Positions 2,897 through 28,361 of a stretch of 64,000 nt of DNA are shown here, in pieces. Position numbers and translations under genes: made by a program. Position 1 is the first letter of the stretch, and every line of letters begins with the position of its first letter. Below the pieces are notes generated by a model. That model saw only the letters and a list, made by a program, of their open reading frames with translations. It did no database searches and was not told the DNA's origin. The stretch is from Escherichia phage RB14: the sequence record NC_012638.1; one strand, written 5' to 3'.

Positions 2897-3135
2897 TGGA
2901 AGGTTTAATTGAAGCTATTAAATCAAACGACCTCGTAGCCGCTCGTAAATTATTTGCTGAAGCCATGGCTGCAAGAACGATTGATTTAATTAAAGAAGAA
3001 AAAATTGCTATTGCTCGTAATTTCTTAATCGAAGGTGAAGAACCTGAAGATGAAGATGAAGATAGCGATGATGATAAAGACGACAAAAAAGACAAAGACT
3101 CTGACGAAGATGACGAAGACGAGGATGATGAATAA
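2896..3135 (+). CDS. 67: Prohead core protein gp67 (79 aa, acidic Asp/Glu tail)
   Basis: ATGA overlap with gene 20 stop; small acidic protein in the T4 gp67 position. Confidence 0.85.
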
Positions 3136-3560
3136 TGCTTCTGATCCCTGAAACTCATGAATTAGTTCTCGAGAATGTCGAAGCACTTATTCCTGAAGCA
3201 CAGGGTCGCTTTGACAAATTGTCTTCTGCTTTAAATAAAGACGATATAAATACAATTGTCGAGAATATGCTTGATGATGAAACTAATTTAGCAGTTGCAT
3301 TAGCTTCTATTAATGAAAACATGCCGTTAAATGAATTCATTGTTAAGCACGTTTCAGCTCGTGGTGAAATTACACGTACTAAAGATCGCAAAACACGCGA
3401 ACGTAATGCATTTCAAACCACTGGGCTGTCTAAAGCAAAACGTAGACAAATTGCTCGCAAAGCTACCAAAACGAAGATTGCCAATCCAGCAGGTCAATCT
3501 CGTGCTCAGCGTAAGCGTAAAAAAGCTCTTAAACGCCGTAAAGCATTAGGATTAAGCTAA
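3135..3560 (+). CDS. 68: Prohead core protein gp68 (141 aa)
   Basis: Overlaps gene 67 stop; 141 aa; basic C-terminus; synteny. Confidence 0.85.
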
Positions 3561-4198
3561 TGAATGAACCCCAATTACTAATTGAAACTTGGGGTCAACC
3601 TGGCGAAATTATTGATGGCGTACCAATGCTTGAATCCCATGATGGAAAAGACTTAGGTTTAAAACCGGGTTTATACATCGAAGGAATATTCATGCAAGCA
3701 GAAGTCGTCAATAGAAATAAACGTCTTTATCCAAAACGTATATTAGAAAAAGCGGTAAAAGACTATATTAATGAGCAAGTTTTAACTAAACAAGCTCTCG
3801 GAGAATTAAATCATCCTCCACGCGCTAATGTTGACCCGATGCAAGCCGCTATCATTATAGAAGATATGTGGTGGAAAGGAAATGACGTATACGGACGAGC
3901 TCGTGTTATTGAAGGTGACCATGGTCCTGGAGATAAATTAGCAGCTAATATTCGTGCCGGATGGATTCCAGGAGTTTCTTCTCGTGGATTAGGTTCATTG
4001 ACTGACACAAATAAAGGTTATCGTATCGTAAACGAAGGATTCAAATTAACTGTAGGTGTTGATGCAGTATGGGGTCCAAGTGCTCCAGATGCATGGGTAA
4101 CTCCTAAGGAAATTACCGAATCACAGACGGCGGAAGCCGATACAAGTGCCGATGACGCCTATATGGCTCTCGCAGAGGCCATGAAAAAAGCGTTATAA
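3560..4198 (+). CDS. 21: Prohead core protease gp21 (212 aa)
   Basis: 212 aa, N-terminus MNEPQLL; position between 68 and 22. Confidence 0.92.
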   Translation: MNEPQLLIETWGQPGEIIDGVPMLESHDGKDLGLKPGLYIEGIFMQAEVVNRNKRLYPKRILEKAVKDYINEQVLTKQALGELNHPPRANVDPMQAAIIIEDMWWKGNDVYGRARVIEGDHGPGDKLAANIRAGWIPGVSSRGLGSLTDTNKGYRIVNEGFKLTVGVDAVWGPSAPDAWVTPKEITESQTAEADTSADDAYMALAEAMKKAL

Positions 4199-4228
4199 AT
4201 ATTATTATCTAAACAACAGGACTACAAA

Positions 4229-5038
4229 ATGCTTAAAGAACAACTGATTGCTGAAGCGCAAAAAATTGATGCTTCCGTTGCTCTTGATAGTATTTTCGAA
4301 TCAGTTAATATTTCTCCGGAAGCAAAAGAAACTTTCGGCACTGTATTCGAAGCTACCGTCAAGCAGCACGCCGTTAAATTAGCTGAATCTCATATCGCTA
4401 AAATTGCTGAAAAAGCAGAAGAAGAAGTAGAAAAAAATAAAGAAGAAGCCGAAGAAAAAGCTGAGAAGAAAATCGCTGAGCAAGCTTCTAAATTCATTGA
4501 CCATCTTGCGAAAGAATGGCTCGCTGAAAATAAATTAGCAGTTGATAAAGGCATCAAAGCCGAACTGTTTGAATCCATGCTTGGTGGATTAAAAGAGCTC
4601 TTTGTTGAACACAACGTTGTTGTTCCAGAAGAATCAGTTGATGTTGTGGCTGAAATGGAAGAAGAGCTGCAAGAACATAAAGAAGAATCAGCTCGTCTGT
4701 TCGAAGAACTCAATATGCGCGACGCATATATCAATTATGTGCAGCGTGAAGTGGCATTGAGCGAAAGTACTAAAGATCTGACTGAGTCTCAAAAAGAAAA
4801 AGTCTCTGCTCTGGTCGAAGGTATGGATTATTCAGATGCATTCTCAAGTAAATTGAGTGCCATCGTAGAAATGGTGAAGAAATCTAATAAAGATGAAAGC
4901 ACTATTACTGAGAGTATAAATACTCCTGATACTGAAGCAGCCGGACTGAATTTCGTCACTGAAGCTGTAGAAGATAAATCTGCATCCGGTGCAGAAGATA
5001 TTGTAAGTGTATATGCGAAAGTCGCATCTCGTTTCTAA
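4229..5038 (+). CDS. 22: Prohead scaffold protein gp22 (269 aa)
   Basis: 269 aa, Glu/Lys-rich coiled-coil composition; directly upstream of the major capsid gene. Confidence 0.92.
   Translation: MLKEQLIAEAQKIDASVALDSIFESVNISPEAKETFGTVFEATVKQHAVKLAESHIAKIAEKAEEEVEKNKEEAEEKAEKKIAEQASKFIDHLAKEWLAENKLAVDKGIKAELFESMLGGLKELFVEHNVVVPEESVDVVAEMEEELQEHKEESARLFEELNMRDAYINYVQREVALSESTKDLTESQKEKVSALVEGMDYSDAFSSKLSAIVEMVKKSNKDESTITESINTPDTEAAGLNFVTEAVEDKSASGAEDIVSVYAKVASRF
4915..4922 (+). promoter_or_regulatory. Late promoter TATAAATA inside the 3' end of gene 22, upstream of gene 23
   Basis: Exact match. Confidence 0.65.
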
Positions 5039-5056
5039 TTTTAAAGGTTAACACAA

Positions 5057-6622
5057 ATGACTATCAAAACTAAAGCTGAACTTTTGAACAAATGGAAGCC
5101 ATTACTGGAAGGTGAAGGTTTACCGGAAATTGCTAATAGCAAACAAGCGATTATCGCTAAAATCTTTGAAAACCAGGAAAAAGATTTCCAGACAGCTCCA
5201 GAGTACAAAGACGAAAAAATCGCTCAGGCGTTCGGTTCTTTCTTAACAGAAGCTGAAATCGGTGGTGACCACGGTTACAATGCTACTAACATCGCTGCAG
5301 GTCAGACTTCTGGCGCAGTAACTCAGATTGGCCCAGCTGTTATGGGTATGGTACGTCGTGCTATTCCTAACCTGATTGCTTTCGATATTTGTGGTGTTCA
5401 GCCGATGAACAGCCCGACTGGCCAGGTATTCGCACTGCGCGCAGTATATGGTAAAGACCCAATCGCTTCCGGTGCTAAAGAAGCATTCCACCCAATGTAT
5501 GGTCCAGATGCAATGTTCTCTGGTCAGGGTGCTGCTAAGAAATTCCCAGCTCTGGCTGCTAGCACACAAACCACAGTAGGTGATATCTATACTCACTTCT
5601 TCCAGGACACTGGTACTGTGTATCTGCAAGCTTCTGCTCAAGTAACAATTAGTGCAAGCGCAACTGACGCAGCTAAATTAGATGCTGAAATTAAGAAACA
5701 AATGGAAGCTGGTGCACTGGTAGAAATCGCTGAAGGTATGGCTACTTCTATCGCTGAACTTCAGGAAGGTTTCAATGGTTCTACCGATAACCCATGGAAT
5801 GAAATGGGCTTCCGTATCGATAAACAAGTTATCGAAGCTAAATCTCGCCAGCTGAAAGCTGCTTACTCTATCGAATTAGCACAAGACCTCCGCGCTGTTC
5901 ACGGTATGGATGCTGACGCTGAACTGTCTGGTATTCTGGCTACAGAAATTATGCTGGAAATCAACCGTGAAGTTGTTGATTGGATTAACTACTCCGCTCA
6001 GGTTGGTAAATCTGGTATGACCCTGACTCCGGGTTCTAAAGCTGGCGTATTCGACTTCCAGGATCCAATTGATATTCGTGGTGCTCGCTGGGCAGGTGAA
6101 TCCTTTAAAGCTCTGTTGTTCCAGATTGACAAAGAAGCAGTTGAAATTGCTCGTCAGACCGGTCGTGGTGAAGGTAACTTCATTATCGCTTCCCGTAACG
6201 TAGTTAACGTTCTGGCTTCAGTTGATACTGGCATTTCTTATGCTGCACAAGGTCTGGCTACCGGCTTTAACACTGATACTACCAAGTCAGTATTTGCTGG
6301 TGTTCTGGGTGGTAAATACCGTGTATATATCGACCAGTATGCTAAACAGGATTATTTCACTGTAGGTTATAAAGGTCCGAACGAAATGGATGCTGGTATT
6401 TACTACGCTCCATATGTAGCTCTGACTCCGCTGCGTGGTTCCGATCCGAAGAACTTCCAACCGGTAATGGGATTCAAAACTCGTTACGGTATCGGTATCA
6501 ACCCATTTGCAGAATCCGCTGCTCAGGCTCCGGCTTCTCGCATCCAGAGCGGTATGCCTTCTATTCTGAATAGCCTTGGTAAAAACGCTTACTTCCGCCG
6601 TGTATATGTTAAAGGTATCTAA
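5057..6622 (+). CDS. 23: Major capsid protein gp23 (521 aa)
   Basis: 521 aa; matches recalled T4 gp23; late promoter TATAAATA at 4915-4922; terminator hairpin downstream. Confidence 0.96.
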   Translation: MTIKTKAELLNKWKPLLEGEGLPEIANSKQAIIAKIFENQEKDFQTAPEYKDEKIAQAFGSFLTEAEIGGDHGYNATNIAAGQTSGAVTQIGPAVMGMVRRAIPNLIAFDICGVQPMNSPTGQVFALRAVYGKDPIASGAKEAFHPMYGPDAMFSGQGAAKKFPALAASTQTTVGDIYTHFFQDTGTVYLQASAQVTISASATDAAKLDAEIKKQMEAGALVEIAEGMATSIAELQEGFNGSTDNPWNEMGFRIDKQVIEAKSRQLKAAYSIELAQDLRAVHGMDADAELSGILATEIMLEINREVVDWINYSAQVGKSGMTLTPGSKAGVFDFQDPIDIRGARWAGESFKALLFQIDKEAVEIARQTGRGEGNFIIASRNVVNVLASVDTGISYAAQGLATGFNTDTTKSVFAGVLGGKYRVYIDQYAKQDYFTVGYKGPNEMDAGIYYAPYVALTPLRGSDPKNFQPVMGFKTRYGIGINPFAESAAQAPASRIQSGMPSILNSLGKNAYFRRVYVKGI

Positions 6623-21161: not shown

Positions 21162-22126
21162 TGTATTCTTTAGAGGAATTTAATAATCAAGCAATAAACG
21201 CAGATTTCCAACGTAATAATATGTTTAGCTGCGTTTTTGCAACAACTCCATCAACTAAAAGCTCTTCGTTGATAAGTTCAATTAGCAACTTTTCTTATAA
21301 TAACTTGGGCCTAAATTCAGATTGGCTAGGATTAACTCAAGGTGATATTAATCAGGGAATTACCACGCTAATTACAGCTGGCACACAAAAACTGATAAGA
21401 AAATCAGGGGTTAGTAAATATCTTATTGGTGCCATGAGTCAACGTACAGTTCAAAGTTTATTAGGCTCATTTACAGTTGGTACATATTTAATTGACTTCT
21501 TTAACATGGCATATAACTCATCTGGATTGATGATATATTCTGTAAAAATGCCAGAGAATAGATTATCCTATGAAACTGACTGGAACTATAATTCTCCTAA
21601 TATTCGTATAACTGGAAGAGAATTAGACCCTTTGGTTATTTCATTTAGAATGGATTCAGAAGCATGTAACTATCGTGCAATGCAAGACTGGGTTAACGCT
21701 GTTCAAGACCCAGTAACTGGATTACGTGCTTTGCCACAAGATGTCGAGGCAGATATTCAGGTTAATCTTCATTCTCGTAATGGATTGCCTCATACTGCGG
21801 TGATGTTCACTGGATGCATTCCAATATCAGTGAGCGCTCCTGAGTTATCATATGATGGAGATAACCAAATAACTACATTTGACGTTACTTTTGCGTATAG
21901 AGTGATGCAGGCTGGAGCAGTTGATAGGCAAGCTGCGCTTGAATGGCTTGAATCTGCTGCTATAAATGGTATTCAAAGCGTTCTCGGAAATAGTGGAGGT
22001 GTTACTGGACTACCTAATTCGCTTTCACGACTTAGTAGATTAGGAGGAACTGCAGGAAGCATTTCAAACATTAATACTATGACAGGGATTGTCAATTCGC
22101 AGAGTAAAATATTAGGAGCAATATAA
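21161..22126 (+). CDS. 54: Baseplate-tail tube initiator gp54 (321 aa)
   Basis: 321 aa; ATGA overlap with gene 48; terminator downstream. Confidence 0.88.
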   Translation: MYSLEEFNNQAINADFQRNNMFSCVFATTPSTKSSSLISSISNFSYNNLGLNSDWLGLTQGDINQGITTLITAGTQKLIRKSGVSKYLIGAMSQRTVQSLLGSFTVGTYLIDFFNMAYNSSGLMIYSVKMPENRLSYETDWNYNSPNIRITGRELDPLVISFRMDSEACNYRAMQDWVNAVQDPVTGLRALPQDVEADIQVNLHSRNGLPHTAVMFTGCIPISVSAPELSYDGDNQITTFDVTFAYRVMQAGAVDRQAALEWLESAAINGIQSVLGNSGGVTGLPNSLSRLSRLGGTAGSISNINTMTGIVNSQSKILGAI

Positions 22127-22130
22127 CAAT

Positions 22131-22160
22131 GGGGACCTTTCGGTCCCCATATTTTTATTT
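22131..22160. terminator. Bidirectional terminator between gene 54 and the alt.-3-position gene
   Basis: GGGGACC-TTTCG-GTCCCC hairpin followed by ATATTTTTATTT. Confidence 0.8.
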
Positions 22161-22445
22161 ACGGAATGAAATAAAAGCAGCAACTGAAGCAACTAAACTG
22201 TCTTCAATATAAACTTCAATTTTTACCGGAGCTTCTGACTCAAATTTACCTGTTACTACACCTTGAAAAATACTTTCAGTCTGTTCTGGCTTTGAAAAAT
22301 TTTCAGAAGGAAAAATTCCGAACTTTTTATCTGTTCCAAAAATTTTGATAAATTCATCGTAAACTGCTTCATTAAAAGCATTATCAGCAGGAATAACGCC
22401 TTCAACGACGAGTTCTTGACCTAAAAAGCGCAAAGAAGATTTCAT
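22155..22445 (-). CDS. Hypothetical protein (alt.-3 position, 96 aa)
   Basis: ATG start with GAGG Shine-Dalgarno; own early promoter/leader cassette upstream. Confidence 0.7.
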   Translation of the reverse strand: MKSSLRFLGQELVVEGVIPADNAFNEAVYDEFIKIFGTDKKFGIFPSENFSKPEQTESIFQGVVTGKFESEAPVKIEVYIEDSLVASVAAFISFRK

Positions 22446-22452
22446 TTTGTGT

Positions 22453-22506
22453 TCCTCATGTTATGTCAGTAAGACTACTATAACACAACATGAGGGACTT
22501 GTAAAC
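22453..22506 (-). repeat. 54 bp promoter/leader cassette, copy 1 (partner at 38230-38283, 52/54 identical)
   Basis: Direct alignment of the two stretches. Confidence 0.9.
22477..22506 (-). promoter_or_regulatory. Early sigma70-type promoter for the alt.-3-position gene
   Basis: Minus strand GTTTACA, 17 nt, TATAGT. Confidence 0.65.
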
Positions 22507-24563
22507 TACATTTTGAACTTTTTAGACATTCCGTTGATGTTAACCAAAGAAGCTAAGATTTGAGAAACTTCGTTTTCCTCTTCTTTTGATTCTTCTACAA
22601 GGAATTGATTAAATCCAGCCATTGGACGAACTTCACCAGTTTCCATTAGATGGTCGCCATCATATACTGATTCTTCTAATTGTTCAGAAGGAGGAACGAT
22701 TGTACCTTCGATTAGATACTTGTTATAAGCAGTTTCTTTCATAAAGTAAGTACTTACTTTATTAATCTTCAGTAAAATTCCACGTGGTAGAATAACTTCA
22801 GCTTCTGATGGAAATCCTGATAAATGACCCGGAACGATAACTTTAACTCGTTCAGCTCCTTTAATTACCATACCCACGCTAGTTTCAGCATCTTCATTAG
22901 CATATGTAGAATGACTACCCATATGCATCAAATCTTCTGCATCAACAGAACCTTCTCCTTCGCCAGAAAATACTGCACCGGAATCATCTAGAGCCATATA
23001 GTTTTTACCATGCTCACCGAAGATATTTGGTTTAAGTGATGTCGATACGAAGTTCTTGAAATAGAACATTTTATTTTCAATGTTATGACGCAAAGTTTTA
23101 AAAGTAACTTCTTGTCCACGGTAAAGTGTAGTTCCTGGAGGAAGAACTGAACCTTTAGCAAACGCAGAATCCATAGTCTCGATGTGCTTAATAGCGCGCT
23201 CCATGTATTCTTCACGTGTAGAATCAGGTTTACCTAAAAGGAATGAGTTCATTTCAACATACGAATCTGCGCAATAATCTTCAATTACATCAGACTCAGC
23301 CTGAGTCAATCCTTTTGGAGTTACTTCAGTGCTTGCATATTCATACGCCTGAGCAGCGGATTCATCAATTAATTTATAAATTCCATTCATTACAAATTGA
23401 ATAATAGCTGTCTTTTCATCTGGTGTAGCTTTAGAACCTTTAACTAAATCATTGATAATTTTCTTAATAACATCAAAACTATTAGAAATATTAATATCAG
23501 CAAGATCGCTTAAAATTTTATCAGTTTTGTAATTAAAGAAGTCTTTATTCTTTAAATATTCCTGGGAACCTTGATATGATGTATCGCTCTGCAACTTGAT
23601 AGATGGATCGCGTAAACGTGCATGGGCTAATGCAATATGATTTCGGAAACTTTCTAGTTCATAATCGTTAGATTTAAAACGAGAAGCACTTCTCATACCG
23701 CCGATAGCTCCTTTGCCGAAGTTTGAACCAATCTGAATAACGCCAGAGTTCATTGGTCCTTCTGCTTTATATACCGGAACTTTAGATTCAAACTCTTGAT
23801 ATTTCTTAGCAGCGAAGCTATCACCCTGAAGTGAAGCATCAACAGTAGAATATTGAGCTTGTGCTGCTAATCGACGACTAATTTTAGTTTTCTGAATAAC
23901 AGCTTGATCCGTACGCTTATCATTTTCTAAAGCAATAGAAGCAGCAACTGCGACAGCTTTAGGAACAGCATTACCTGTTTTAACGTCTACATAAACATCA
24001 CCAACCTTTGATTCAACTTTTGTGAATAACTCAGTTGAAATAGGAGGTACACCTGGAATGTCTTCTAAATTGGCATTTTTACGGTAAACCATAATATATG
24101 CATATTTCTTATCATAGTCCCAGATTTCCTTTAAAAGAACATATCGACCTGCTCCTTTAGTACGTACTAAACGGTCAGCAATAACTTGCATTTGACGAGC
24201 AGCGCCATTTGTTTTACTTTTTAGTACGCGGAATAGGCATGCATCAATTTTATACTGTTTCATTGTTTGAAGAGCAGTATCAAAAACCGCATTAATGACA
24301 CCAATTGGATTTCCACCCAAGTTTTTAAGCTTAACTAACGATAATTTCTCATTAACACCTATCATTACGATATGCATCATTTTGTCGCCTGGCTTAACGT
24401 TTTTATTCGTATCACCGCCAGAGGTGTATGTACAAAATCGAAATCCAGGAAGAACGCTTTCTTCACCGGCTTGAATAGCAAAAATTTGAGGTATTTTATG
24501 CTTAGGATTTAAGTTAACAACCGGCGCCGAAGCGCCGTCAAATAATTCTGTAATAAGTTCCAT
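22506..24563 (-). CDS. Alt-like ADP-ribosyltransferase paralog (685 aa)
   Basis: N-terminus MELITELFD and about 230 aa closely parallel to alt; C-terminal region has FVSTSL and SEAEVILPRG motifs. Confidence 0.85.
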   Translation of the reverse strand: MELITELFDGASAPVVNLNPKHKIPQIFAIQAGEESVLPGFRFCTYTSGGDTNKNVKPGDKMMHIVMIGVNEKLSLVKLKNLGGNPIGVINAVFDTALQTMKQYKIDACLFRVLKSKTNGAARQMQVIADRLVRTKGAGRYVLLKEIWDYDKKYAYIMVYRKNANLEDIPGVPPISTELFTKVESKVGDVYVDVKTGNAVPKAVAVAASIALENDKRTDQAVIQKTKISRRLAAQAQYSTVDASLQGDSFAAKKYQEFESKVPVYKAEGPMNSGVIQIGSNFGKGAIGGMRSASRFKSNDYELESFRNHIALAHARLRDPSIKLQSDTSYQGSQEYLKNKDFFNYKTDKILSDLADINISNSFDVIKKIINDLVKGSKATPDEKTAIIQFVMNGIYKLIDESAAQAYEYASTEVTPKGLTQAESDVIEDYCADSYVEMNSFLLGKPDSTREEYMERAIKHIETMDSAFAKGSVLPPGTTLYRGQEVTFKTLRHNIENKMFYFKNFVSTSLKPNIFGEHGKNYMALDDSGAVFSGEGEGSVDAEDLMHMGSHSTYANEDAETSVGMVIKGAERVKVIVPGHLSGFPSEAEVILPRGILLKINKVSTYFMKETAYNKYLIEGTIVPPSEQLEESVYDGDHLMETGEVRPMAGFNQFLVEESKEEENEVSQILASLVNINGMSKKFKM

Positions 24564-24566
24564 GAT

Positions 24567-26663
24567 TTATCCTTGAACGAACTTGTAAGGCATGTTTGTA
24601 ATATCTATGCAAGACGCAATAATTCCAAGAGATGATTCTACTTTCTGTTTAACGTTTGATGAAACAAATGATGCAAAGTCAACTCTGTCTTCTATTTCAG
24701 TATCACCTGTCATTGCAACTACTTCACCGGTTTCCATTAAATGGTCTCCGTCATAGATTACCGATTCGGTGAGCTCTTCCGTGGTCATAACTTCAGCTTG
24801 AATGAGTTTTGTATTATTAGATGTTGTTCCGTCATTATTAGAAGCATCAGTTATTTTATTAACTTTGACCATCAATCCACGCGGTAGAATAACTTCAGCT
24901 TCTGTTGCTATTCCGAGACTTCCTGGATATACAACATTAACTTTATGAGCTCCATCAATTGCCCATCCTATTTGAACTTTAACGTATTCAGGATTTTCTT
25001 TATACGCTCTTATTTCGTTTGGATTAATAGTTATTCCTTCTTCATTTTTATCAACTGTTAATTCATTGCGAGCTTCTGGTTCTAAAAGACCAATACCAGC
25101 ATGTGTGATTCCAAAACGTCCAAAAATGATAGGAGTTAAAGAAGTAGATACAAAATTTCTGAAGTAGAACACTTTATTTTTAACTAACGCTTCATATATA
25201 GGAGCAGTCATACTTTGAGCACGATAAACTGTAATGCCTTCTGGTATACGGTCACCATTTTCAAAAGCTGAATCTAAGTTATTTATAGCAGATTCAATTT
25301 CTTTTTCACTCATTACATCATATCGTTCTGGATTGTAACGACCTAAAAGAAGATTATTGATGTCAGTATATCCTGAACCGCAATATTCTCTAATGCCACG
25401 CTTTTGTGATGGAGTATATTTAGAACCATCGCGGGCAATAGTAATATCAATCATTGGACCAGCACCAATTCCAGAAAAACTGTAAATCATTCGTTTGAGG
25501 AATTTAGTTTTTGCTGCGTTCCAGGAATTTTTAGTTATTTCTTCCCAGACTTCATCTGGTTGTCCTTTACGATTTTTATTATGATTAGCAAGCCATTTAT
25601 CTTTATAATCTTCAAAGAATTGATTTACAGCTGCTGCGTATTTCTCTAAACATTTTATTGAAGTAGTTGGTTCATTTTTAATTGCATTAAAAATTACTTC
25701 TTTAATTTTTTCTGAAACTTCACCGACTTGACTCATTGGAAAGAATTTATAATCATAGTGAAGTTCATCTGCCGTTCCTTCAGCAATAATTTTTGCTGCC
25801 TTTGTTTTAGAAGCTAATGAATTAATTCCAATTTTCATTTCTTCTGCTTCGGGAATTAAAGGTGCAGTAGCTGGTTTATTAAAATTAGCTGCTGTAGATT
25901 CATACTTCTGGAATAATTCACTTTCAAATCTAGAAGATTCCAATGACTGACTTTGTGCAATTGCTCTACGGGAAATTTTAACTTTAACGATTACGGCTTG
26001 GTCAGAACGTTTATCATTTTCTTGTGCAATAGATGCAGCAATTGCCTCATTTTTGGTTACTTGAGCTCCAGTATCTTTATTGATATAAACATCACCGACC
26101 TTCGATTCAACTTTAGTAAAGAGCTCGGTGCTAATTTCTGGAACTCCTGGAATGTCTTCTAGTGATACATTTTTACGATGTATAAGAATATATGCATACT
26201 TTTTATCGTAATCCCAGAGTTCCTTAAGAAGGACGTATCTGCCACCTGAACGACTGCGGATGAGTCTATCAGCAATAAGTTGAATTTGTCGAGCTTGACC
26301 GGCGGTTTTAGACTTAAGAATACGAAGCATGCAGGCATCAATTTTATATTGACGCATTGTTTGCATTGCAACAGTAAAAACTGAATTGATATAATTAATC
26401 GGGCTTGGACCAAGACCTTTTAATTTAGCAATTGAACCTTTAGCAGTTAATGTAAAAGGAACAATATGCATCATTTTATCGCCCATCTTTAAATCACGAT
26501 TAGTATCACCTCCAGATGTATAGGTACATAAACGAAAGCCTGGTTGTTCAATTGCATCATCAACATGAACTGAAAAAATTTGTGGTATTTTCTTCTTTGG
26601 ATTTAAGTTTGTAATCGGAAGAGTAGTATCTTCGTCAAATAATTCTGTAATGAGTTCCATCAT
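24567..26663 (-). CDS. alt: Alt ADP-ribosyltransferase, packaged in the head (698 aa from first ATG)
   Basis: N-terminus MMELITELFDEDTTLPITNL matches recalled T4 Alt; STS and EAE motifs; reverse TATAAATA upstream. Confidence 0.9.
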   Translation of the reverse strand: MMELITELFDEDTTLPITNLNPKKKIPQIFSVHVDDAIEQPGFRLCTYTSGGDTNRDLKMGDKMMHIVPFTLTAKGSIAKLKGLGPSPINYINSVFTVAMQTMRQYKIDACMLRILKSKTAGQARQIQLIADRLIRSRSGGRYVLLKELWDYDKKYAYILIHRKNVSLEDIPGVPEISTELFTKVESKVGDVYINKDTGAQVTKNEAIAASIAQENDKRSDQAVIVKVKISRRAIAQSQSLESSRFESELFQKYESTAANFNKPATAPLIPEAEEMKIGINSLASKTKAAKIIAEGTADELHYDYKFFPMSQVGEVSEKIKEVIFNAIKNEPTTSIKCLEKYAAAVNQFFEDYKDKWLANHNKNRKGQPDEVWEEITKNSWNAAKTKFLKRMIYSFSGIGAGPMIDITIARDGSKYTPSQKRGIREYCGSGYTDINNLLLGRYNPERYDVMSEKEIESAINNLDSAFENGDRIPEGITVYRAQSMTAPIYEALVKNKVFYFRNFVSTSLTPIIFGRFGITHAGIGLLEPEARNELTVDKNEEGITINPNEIRAYKENPEYVKVQIGWAIDGAHKVNVVYPGSLGIATEAEVILPRGLMVKVNKITDASNNDGTTSNNTKLIQAEVMTTEELTESVIYDGDHLMETGEVVAMTGDTEIEDRVDFASFVSSNVKQKVESSLGIIASCIDITNMPYKFVQG

Positions 26664-26683
26664 ATCCTCTCTAGTGTTTATTC

Positions 26684-26691
26684 TATTTATA
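26684..26691 (-). promoter_or_regulatory. Late promoter (reverse TATAAATA) upstream of alt
   Basis: Exact match. Confidence 0.65.
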
Positions 26692-26712
26692 AAATTAAAG
26701 GCCCGAAGGCCT

Positions 26713-26901
26713 TTAATAATCTATTGGTAATAGAGTACGATATATTTCAAACTTTGGACCTTTTTCATAAGCATCAAAAGTTTCTGTGAATTTATTATAA
26801 GCATATGCATCTATAAATTCAATCATGATTTGCGATACAGAAGTAGAAACATCTCCACCTTCTTTTTGAGCCACGACAATTGTTTCTAAGTAAGCTTTCA
26901 T
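26713..26901 (-). CDS. Hypothetical small protein (62 aa)
   Basis: ATG overlapping the gene 30 stop (ATGA), suggesting translational coupling. Confidence 0.6.
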   Translation of the reverse strand: MKAYLETIVVAQKEGGDVSTSVSQIMIEFIDAYAYNKFTETFDAYEKGPKFEIYRTLLPIDY

Positions 26902-28361
26902 AAACCAGTTACCTCATGAAAATCGCCAAATACATCTTCGAACGTATTAGCTTTAGTTTTATCTTCACGTAAACGAATCGCAATTGGAAGAAATAATTTA
27001 ACGTAATCGGTGCGGCCATCAGATTTTAACCAACCGTTGCATTCGCACTCTAGAATTTTTCCAATATAATAATTTTGGTTTTCCATAATGCGAGTACGGT
27101 CAAGTTCATGCGATTTTATACCAGCTTTATCTTTTAAGCCTGAACCAGCATTTACTTTAATTTTTCCACACTCTGACTCAAGAATAAATCCACCCGCTTT
27201 AGTAGGGTCTTTACGGTGAGGATAAATTCCTACAATTTTTAAATCAACATCAATTACTTCTTTAAATTTATAAAGATTTTTTGAACGAGCATTTTCCCAT
27301 AATCCATCGATATTTTTGAGAATAATACCTTCAAGACCTTGGTCAATATACTTTTTGTAAATTACCTTAGCTTCATCTAGGTTATTTACTACTTGGTTTT
27401 CAATTAAAATTACTTTATCATAGCCTGATGTCATTTGTTCTAGTTTAGAAAAACGTACATCATATTTTAAACGAAACGCTGGAAGACCATATATTTCTAC
27501 TAATGGAACATAGTCCCAGACCTGAAACTTCATGCATTGTGCTTCTTTTTCAGAAATGGTTCCCTTTAAAGATTTATTAGCGATTCCATTAGAAGTAGTA
27601 CGTGATTCAGCTACTTCGGCGAATTCTTTAGCTTTACTAATTTCAGGATAAGCATCAAAAAGAAAATCTAGGCCTTCTGGTTCCTTTTCAACTTGCTCAT
27701 GGTATACCAATTCGCCATCAATTAACACACCTTCTGGATGAATCTGGCGAGCTTCTGCAGTCATTTTGATTAACTCTTCCTTGAGAAGATCTAATCCTAG
27801 ATATTCATTACCAGCTCGTGATAAAAGACGAACATCATCTAATTCATCACCTCTGACTTCAGCAAAGCACCGAGCTCCATCAGCTTTTAACTGCGCAAAA
27901 GCTGGAAACTTAATATTCTTACTAATGCCTTTTTCATCATAAGAACTTGCCAGCATTTGAGGTTGTTCAGGAATTAAACCTGGCCAAACTTTATTTGCAA
28001 TAGATACTGAAGCACCGCATTCAAGGTCTCGCATCATCACCCGACGCAAAACTTCAACATCATCTTTTTTACCGTCAGCAATATATCCAGTTAATTCCTC
28101 AATTGCCGCATTTCCGGTCAATTTCCGAGTAGCTAACGTGAATTCAATGAAGTCAAGCATATCGGTAAGAGTCAACATTCCAAAACTCTGGGTAGCAATA
28201 CCAGGTTTAGGCCATTTCTTGATATAATACTGTAACCCACGAGAATAAGTCAGACGATATACTCGTTTAAGCAATTCATTATCTTTATTCTTTTCAAGAA
28301 TTGCTTGCTTCTGCTTAGTTGAACCAATAGATGCTATTTCGTTCAGAATTTTAAGAATCAT
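26898..28361 (-). CDS. 30: ATP-dependent DNA ligase gp30 (487 aa)
   Basis: 487 aa; adenylation motif KADGAR; matches recalled T4 DNA ligase. Confidence 0.95.
   Translation of the reverse strand: MILKILNEIASIGSTKQKQAILEKNKDNELLKRVYRLTYSRGLQYYIKKWPKPGIATQSFGMLTLTDMLDFIEFTLATRKLTGNAAIEELTGYIADGKKDDVEVLRRVMMRDLECGASVSIANKVWPGLIPEQPQMLASSYDEKGISKNIKFPAFAQLKADGARCFAEVRGDELDDVRLLSRAGNEYLGLDLLKEELIKMTAEARQIHPEGVLIDGELVYHEQVEKEPEGLDFLFDAYPEISKAKEFAEVAESRTTSNGIANKSLKGTISEKEAQCMKFQVWDYVPLVEIYGLPAFRLKYDVRFSKLEQMTSGYDKVILIENQVVNNLDEAKVIYKKYIDQGLEGIILKNIDGLWENARSKNLYKFKEVIDVDLKIVGIYPHRKDPTKAGGFILESECGKIKVNAGSGLKDKAGIKSHELDRTRIMENQNYYIGKILECECNGWLKSDGRTDYVKLFLPIAIRLREDKTKANTFEDVFGDFHEVTGL

Follow-up and report, generated by a model that had tools for sequence, protein, structure and literature searches.

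alt2, a full-length Alt-type gene beside alt in Escherichia phage RB14, and its predicted role as a second packaged ADP-ribosyltransferase

A 64,000-nucleotide (nt) stretch of the Escherichia phage RB14 genome (NC_012638.1; hereafter, the window) carries on its minus strand, directly after the ADP-ribosyltransferase (ART) gene alt, a second Alt-type gene that we call alt2. Alt2 is probably a second working enzyme of the Alt family, namely an arginine-directed (E-x-E) mono-ADP-ribosyltransferase that is transcribed late with alt, packaged, and injected, and whose set of targets partly differs from that of Alt. We give this reading a probability of roughly 0.68; packaging, injection, enzymatic activity, and target divergence of Alt2 are what we infer from the features described below. 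The existence of the gene and its family assignment are already in databases, and what is added here is a sharper hypothesis, not a discovery. A preliminary description of this DNA, made from the sequence alone, had treated the paralog as possibly unrecognised, which did not hold, since it is annotated as "alt.-2" in RB51, as "Alt-like RNA polymerase ADP-ribosyltransferase" (twice) in RefSeq, as "Alt2" in the BASEL phages Bas35 and Bas37, and in T2 too. A 2006 paper had already pointed out Alt paralogs, among them the T4 fragments and a full-length duplicate in 44RR (PMC1524935), and one from 2026 reported two Alt-like paralogs at 43% identity (PMC13600099). The most useful outputs of this analysis are the exact origin of the T4 remnants, the finding that both gp21 sites are conserved, the hybrid loci, and a pointer to published transposon data.

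The alt2 gene and its predicted enzyme

The region at 22100-26950 was 99.2% identical in DNA sequence to RB51 and RB68, identifying it as a Tequatrovirus genome segment. On the minus strand the gene order was DNA ligase (gene 30), alt.1, alt, alt2, and alt.-3. The list of open reading frames (ORFs) contained both tandem full-length Alt-type genes of the preliminary description, including the ORF of 685 amino acids (aa) beside alt, at 24567..26663 and 22506..24563; the 3-nt spacing was likewise found, as "atc" between the alt stop codon and the alt2 ATG. The features of alt2, all on the minus strand, were as follows.

22506..24563, minus: alt2 (the paralog), 685 aa; AAGGA Shine-Dalgarno sequence 6 nt upstream; start 3 nt after the alt stop
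24546..24563, minus: Alt2 residues 1-6 (MELITE), predicted N-terminal propeptide, with the gp21 site between ITE and L
23850..24545, minus: Alt2 residues 7-238, N module (PF26846 Tevenvirinae_ADPRT), an alpha/beta domain common with Alt
23319..23849, minus: Alt2 residues 239-415, divergent all-helical region (predicted helices; predicted local distance difference test score, pLDDT, 77-89)
22689..23318, minus: Alt2 residues 416-625, ADP-ribosyltransferase catalytic domain (PF03496, 9.2e-20)
23118-23120, 23037-23045, and 22797-22805, minus: Alt2 R482, S507-T-S509, and E587-A-E589
22509..22670, minus: Alt2 residues 632-685, predicted acidic C-terminal propeptide after the gp21 site LEE-631 (cut before S); low pLDDT

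Those of alt, in the numbering of the window protein, were the following.

24567..26663, minus: alt ORF as listed, 698 aa
24567..26660, minus: alt in its likelier frame, 697 aa, RB51-type allele, from the second ATG (MELITE...)
Within alt, minus: N-propeptide 1-6, N module 7-239, C-propeptide after LTE-632
Within the alt ART body, minus: catalytic residues R480, S505-T-S507, and E587-A-E589, from the alignment

The alt coordinates given earlier thus stand for the ORF, and the start is likelier at the second ATG (26660), because of the spacing of the GAGG Shine-Dalgarno sequence (5 nt before the second ATG but only 2 nt before the first), the RB51 annotation, and the T4 ITE-6 numbering, which is counted from MELITE.

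BLASTP aligned Alt and Alt2 over their full length at 42% identity (E=3e-160). The similarity was unevenly distributed. The N-terminal ~238 residues were 67-68% identical and the MELITELFD N-terminus was the same, in agreement with the preliminary description, which had the first ~230 residues of the paralog parallel Alt. The divergent middle that it described corresponds to residues 247-415, at 20-25% identity. The catalytic region was 28-40% identical, with a conserved block near the C-terminus, and the bodies as a whole reached only ~35% identity. The catalytic-type motifs FVSTSL and SEAEVILPRG had been described as kept in both proteins; the first stood, as NFVSTSL in Alt and Alt2, and so did EAEVILPRG, and the full SEAEVILPRG is the Alt2 version only.

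Profile search and structure prediction, both suggested in the preliminary description, pointed to a transferase. PF03496 matched Alt with 129.9 bits (1e-37) and Alt2 with 71.2 bits (9.2e-20), both above the curated gathering cut-off of 23.4 bits, and PHROG 802 matched both end to end (Alt2 over 1-685). In the Pfam scan of the two window proteins PF03496 was the only family; PF26846 came from precomputed annotations, for all homologues, and the scanned Pfam copy seems to have been without the PF26846 model. A PDB sequence search with Alt2 gave no match at E<=0.01, and NCBIfam contained no matching model. In the AlphaFold model of Alt2 (mean pLDDT 73.9), an alpha/beta domain at the N-terminus is followed by a helical region and then by the ART domain. 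Searched against the PDB with Foldseek, the ART domain best matched Vis, C3bot, CDTa, VIP2, and Certhrax, at E values of 1e-7 to 1e-5, target template modelling (TM) scores of 0.6-0.7, and sequence identities of only 15-20%. Alt2 is therefore predicted, at the level of the model, to have a C3/Vis/VIP2-like ART fold. In this predicted catalytic fold and in its motifs Alt2 resembles the R-S-E toxins C3, Vis, VIP2, and CDTa; whereas those rely on secretion or binary-toxin translocation, the proposed route of Alt2 is packaging in the phage head.

Nineteen diverse proteins of the Alt and Alt2 types were aligned, and the R, S-T-S, and E-x-E residues (in order, R482, S507/S509, and E587/E589 in Alt2 numbering) were invariant in 19/19 sequences. 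In C3-like and Alt-type ARTs, the E-x-E form of the ADP-ribosylating turn-turn (ARTT) motif goes with arginine specificity, and the region between S-T-S and E-x-E is the site of substrate-recognition loops in C3-like ARTs. Between Alt and Alt2 this stretch was ~28% identical. Since Alt2 has only 20-40% identity to Alt in the helical region and the substrate loops, the targets of the two probably differ, at least in part.

The Alt2 proteins of T2, RB51, RB68, Bas35, and Bas37 were orthologues with 95-99% identity at the same position and spacing, so the window is one more instance, and full-length alt2 occurred in ~400 phage records. The median ratio of nonsynonymous to synonymous substitution rates (dN/dS) of the Alt2 body was 0.05 (36 pairwise comparisons of 9 phages; dS 0.07-0.32), and no stop codons were present in alt2 of the 9 sampled orthologues. 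All sequence evidence thus indicates that alt2 is a real working gene under strong purifying selection; a pseudogene or decaying duplicate was considered and rejected on the dN/dS of ~0.05.

Predicted head packaging and late transcription

T4 Alt enters the prohead core and is cut by gp21 at ITE-6 and LTE-619, as determined by mass spectrometry, which strips off 6 and 63 residues (PMC5694885; PMC9026906). We checked every [LI]-x-E motif in Alt2 for conservation in the 19-sequence family alignment. Only E6 (19/19) and E631 (18/19) reached a conservation of >=18/19, and their positions in the alignment coincide exactly with the two cleavage sites of T4 Alt. The N-terminal prohead-protease site expected in the preliminary description was thus found conserved, and so was the C-terminal site mapped in T4 Alt. 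The predicted mature Alt2 would consist of residues 7-631 (69.1 kDa), leaving an acidic C-propeptide of 54 residues. Synonymous sites of the N module were saturated between the paralogs (proportion of synonymous differences, pS, 0.66; dS ~1.6), the same as elsewhere in the genes. Because the N module is 67-68% identical despite this saturation, it appears to be held by selection and not by recent conversion; recent gene conversion in this genome was accordingly ruled out as the cause of the N-terminal similarity.

These features are strong, if indirect, evidence for entry of Alt2 into the head and for its processing. Alt-family proteins have also been detected in virions of other Tevenvirinae genera (PMC5384007, PMC13119998). 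In the proposed sequence of events, the Alt-like N module and the terminal propeptides would bring Alt2 into the prohead core; gp21 would then trim it at ITE-6 and LEE-631 to a mature protein of ~69 kDa, which would travel in the head, be ejected with the DNA into the next host, and there ADP-ribosylate host proteins. Alt2 shares with T4 Alt (gpAlt; NP_049811) the MELITE N-propeptide, an N module of ~230 aa, the helical region, the R-S-ExE ART domain, and a C-propeptide after [LI]xE, as well as locus, strand, late transcription unit, PHROG 802, and Pfam families. The differences are that Alt2 is only ~35% identical outside the N module, and that the two proteins differ in the S-T-S to E-x-E insertion and in the type of C-terminal tail (...KKFKM vs ...YKFVQG). 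The targets of T4 Alt (RNA polymerase alpha, MazF, and others) and its anti-Mokosh role have been reported for T4 Alt only.

We also considered the N module as a general delivery domain carried by many effector types. This was rejected. A sequence profile search of 1.84e9 representatives returned only 74 clusters; among the members of unusual length or weak match that were scanned or aligned, an ART domain was present in 8/8 (6 by Pfam, 2 by alignment), and four distant members were without any Pfam match. Structural matches in BFVD to large uncharacterised phage proteins were suggestive but weak (TM ~0.5, 10-16% identity) and stand as a lead.

As for transcription, the signals around the two genes were as follows.

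26684..26691, minus: T4-type late promoter TATAAATA upstream of alt (direct sequence reading and pattern scan)
26697..26714, minus: hairpin aaaggccttcgggccttt with a T-rich tail after alt.1 (sequence reading)
22129..22150, either strand: bidirectional terminator-like hairpin between alt.-3 and gene 54, marking the end of the alt-alt2-alt.-3 transcription unit

The late promoter proposed at 26684-26691 was found exactly there, on the minus strand, 20 nt 5' of the GAGG Shine-Dalgarno sequence and directly after the hairpin terminator 3' of alt.1. This hairpin would insulate the alt unit from transcription upstream; a terminator upstream of alt is conserved across T4-like genomes (PMC1524935). 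From the late promoter down to the hairpin at 22129-22150, the minus strand showed no terminator-like site. The motif and the lack of an intervening terminator are what would be expected for late expression of alt and alt2 from the TATAAATA promoter, adjoining the baseplate genes, and T4 omics data classify alt as a late gene (PMC9697503). The alt block is convergent with genes 54 and 48, which lie on the plus strand.

A second exact TATAAATA was present inside alt, at 25280-25287 on the minus strand, where it falls on the A-I-N-N codons and lies ~715 nt upstream of alt2. The T4-type Alt protein reads A-I-D-N there (proteins, not DNA, were compared), and therefore the internal motif is unlikely to be common to both alleles. 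As a separate late promoter for alt2 it was set aside as probably fortuitous.

T4 remnants and recombination at the alt locus

The preliminary description had raised the possibility that the small alt.-1 and alt.-2 ORFs of T4 are remnants of this paralog, and the alignments confirm it. With the first 351 nt of alt2, the DNA of T4 alt.-1/alt.-2 had 95.4% identity, compared with 69-73% with alt. After these 351 nt the T4 sequence jumps to the last ~20 nt of alt2 and the intergenic region, and the 3' flank was 97.5% identical. The two breakpoints lie in a 9-nt direct repeat.

24216..24224, minus: upstream copy of CTAAAAAGT, 5' breakpoint of the T4 deletion
22517..22525, minus: downstream copy of CTAAAAAGT, 3' breakpoint of the 1,699-nt T4 deletion

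The T4 deletion thus amounts to 1,699 nt between the CTAAAAAGT repeats, with the junction within the repeat, and a 1-nt loss in an A-run causes the frameshift and the alt.-1 stop in T4. Furthermore, PHROGs 23015 and 15247, whose lengths of 61 and 67 positions are those of T4 alt.-1 and alt.-2, matched Alt2 residues 1-56 and 62-117 better than Alt. The T4 record describes alt.-1/alt.-2 as a duplication of the first part of alt only. The comparison shows T4 alt.-1 and alt.-2 (NP_049810, NP_049809) to be instead the broken remains of full-length alt2. The T4-type deletion junction was contiguous in 91 phage records, against ~400 with intact alt2. T4 is therefore a natural alt2 deletion mutant, and the presence of two genes is the common, ancestral state in Tequatrovirus.

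The alt gene of the window is also a different allele from that of T4. Its N module was 99% identical to that of T4 Alt and the tails were nearly the same; the ART body was ~56% identical to T4 Alt, the difference lying especially at ~24850-25900. Behind the 99% identical N module, the RB51-type body was found in ~327 phage records and the T4-type in ~175. For the ART body of alt, T4 thus has the less common allele.

Other loci differed in copy number. In three, those of Yersinia phage PST and of two metagenomic contigs, a single gene lay between alt.1 and alt.-3, with an Alt-type 5' part, an Alt2-type remainder, and clean switch points, that is, an Alt(N)-Alt2(body) hybrid.

Yersinia phage PST (L005), 3001-5061: hybrid, crossover at nt ~300
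First metagenomic contig (L008), 4001-6055: hybrid, crossover at nt ~550
Second metagenomic contig (L009), 4001-6061: hybrid, crossover at nt ~155

Because the crossover points differ, at least three independent unequal crossovers took place between the paralog N modules. Each removed the Alt body, leaving the Alt2 body as the only ART of the locus, behind Alt's own N module and at Alt's late promoter position. The Dhakavirus KIT01 carried three tandem alt genes, 3 nt apart, at the same locus (L010, 93-6356). Like the window array, the KIT01 array lies between alt.1 and alt.-3, has the 3-nt spacing, and ends with an Alt2-type gene (51% body identity); unlike it, it has three genes, and copy number among Tevenvirinae thus ranges from one to three. 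Across genera, the body of window Alt was 49% identical to that of KIT01_205 and the body of Alt2 51% identical to that of KIT01_203; within one genome, bodies were 31-38% identical, and Alt2 was 35% identical to its own neighbour. The N modules were 68% identical within the window, 66-87% within KIT01, and 41-45% between the genera. Bodies therefore group by position and N modules by genome, indicating an old duplication with later N-module homogenisation, the signature of concerted evolution. A more divergent lineage (L011) also had tandem alt and alt2. Taken together, these loci show recombination at work in the alt array, which holds between one and three genes.

A wider reading, which we hold only tentatively at somewhat below even odds, is that the locus is a recombination-driven array of injected effectors, in which the N module, with two propeptides removable by gp21, would serve as head ticket and as homology handle for unequal crossover, the ART bodies would be interchangeable warheads, and Alt2 would have its own host target. 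On this tentative reading, Tequatrovirus would have no fewer than three warheads (T4-type Alt, RB51-type Alt, and Alt2), and Dhakavirus three as well.

The gene downstream of the array, alt.-3, has signals of its own.

22155..22445, minus: alt.-3 (DUF5498, 96 aa), the gene after the alt array
22451..22498, minus: stable hairpin between alt2 and alt.-3 (RNA fold -23.4 kcal/mol, z = -4.1)
22500-22506 (-35, GTTTACA) and 22477-22482 (-10, TATAGT), minus: T4 early-type promoter inside this hairpin, 17-nt spacing (promoter scan)

The hairpin pairs the alt.-3 Shine-Dalgarno sequence (22454-22457). A transcript from the early promoter would be without the 5' hairpin arm, leaving the ribosome site of alt.-3 exposed, whereas late read-through from alt and alt2 would hide it. 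All loci examined, those of KIT01 and the divergent L011 among them, had alt.-3 directly after the alt array, and a functional link to the ARTs, for example as a partner or regulator, is possible. In transposon data for Bas37, the alt.-3 orthologue bas37_0031 was non-essential on K-12 and depleted in one clinical-strain comparison (log2 fold change -2.70, q = 0.02) (10.1101/2025.11.20.689424).

Alternative readings and what Alt2 may mean

Bas37 is a sister phage with the same two-gene locus, and the transposon-sequencing preprint, which does not discuss Alt2, lists both genes (10.1101/2025.11.20.689424, Extended Data Table 7).

Alt2 (bas37_0032): 116/164 TA sites (0.71), Intermediate, 44.5 mean reads per site
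Alt (bas37_0033): 164/179 TA sites (0.92), Non-essential, 203.6 mean reads per site

These values suggest that disruption of alt2 has a fitness cost and that, on E. coli K-12, Alt2 is the more important of the two. The same work reported that T4 Alt counters Mokosh type I and that Bas37 Alt is no substitute for it (10.1101/2025.11.20.689424); this failure may be due to the different allele of the alt body.

Several points weigh against a packaged, injected Alt2 with partly different targets. No virion proteomics, injection assay, or enzymology of Alt2 itself was found in the literature, and searches for "Alt2" or for Tequatrovirus virion proteomics with a second ART gave nothing specific. The extreme N-terminus is not identical, residue 10 being Gly in Alt2 (MELITELFDG) and Glu in Alt (MELITELFDE). 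The ART domain model is less confident in places, with pLDDT of 57-75 in residues 510-560. The Intermediate class in Bas37 could be an effect of toxic truncated products instead of the loss of a useful function. Finally, alt2 is lost in T4 and ~90 related records, and in the hybrid phages the Alt body is lost instead. Because either gene has been lost in nature, either enzyme is dispensable, which fits partial redundancy better than a unique role.

Redundancy is the likeliest alternative. It states that Alt2 is packaged and active but acts on the same principal targets as Alt (e.g., Arg265 of RNA polymerase alpha), as a dosage or back-up copy. Membership of the same family, the arginine-type E-x-E motif, and the delivery signals present in both proteins agree with this, as does the loss of alt2 in the T4 clade and of the Alt body in PST-type hybrids. 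However, the ~35% identical bodies have been distinct since before the split of Tequatrovirus and Dhakavirus, given that Alt2 is closer to KIT01_203 (51%) than to its neighbour (35%), and the stretch between S-T-S and E-x-E is ~28% identical. Both genes are also under strong constraint in ~400 genomes, and they behave differently in the Bas37 screen. We therefore regard redundancy as unlikely.

Alternatively, Alt2 could be an active ART that is not packaged and acts late in the producing cell, like a late counterpart of ModA/ModB. No direct report of virion association of Alt2 was found in the literature, and the difference at position 10 could be read in this sense. Nevertheless, the selected N module, both gp21 sites, and the propeptides would be unexplained without prohead entry, and hybrids joining the Alt N module to the Alt2 body are maintained as the sole gene at the locus, which makes this alternative quite improbable. 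Alt2 could also be a duplicate that has lost catalysis or is decaying, whether as a pseudoenzyme, a head-filling protein, or an incipient pseudogene. The gene decay seen in T4 offers a parallel, but this alternative is scarcely credible in view of the invariant R-S-ExE residues, the dN/dS of ~0.05 with no stop codons in the 9 sampled orthologues, the ~400 full-length copies, and the fitness effect of alt2 disruption in Bas37.

A second injected Alt-family enzyme with partly different targets hence remains our preferred reading of alt2, and its meaning lies in the part that T4 has played in this field. Almost all knowledge of injected phage ADP-ribosyltransferases comes from T4, which is atypical twice, having lost alt2 and carrying the minority alt ART body allele. 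Should Alt2 be injected and act on targets of its own, most T-even phages would deliver two different protein-modifying enzymes, and models of host takeover and anti-defence built on T4 only would be incomplete. If the more tentative reading of the locus as an effector array is also true, the target of Alt2 would plausibly be a defence or takeover target, one that was missed since T4 is a natural alt2 null.

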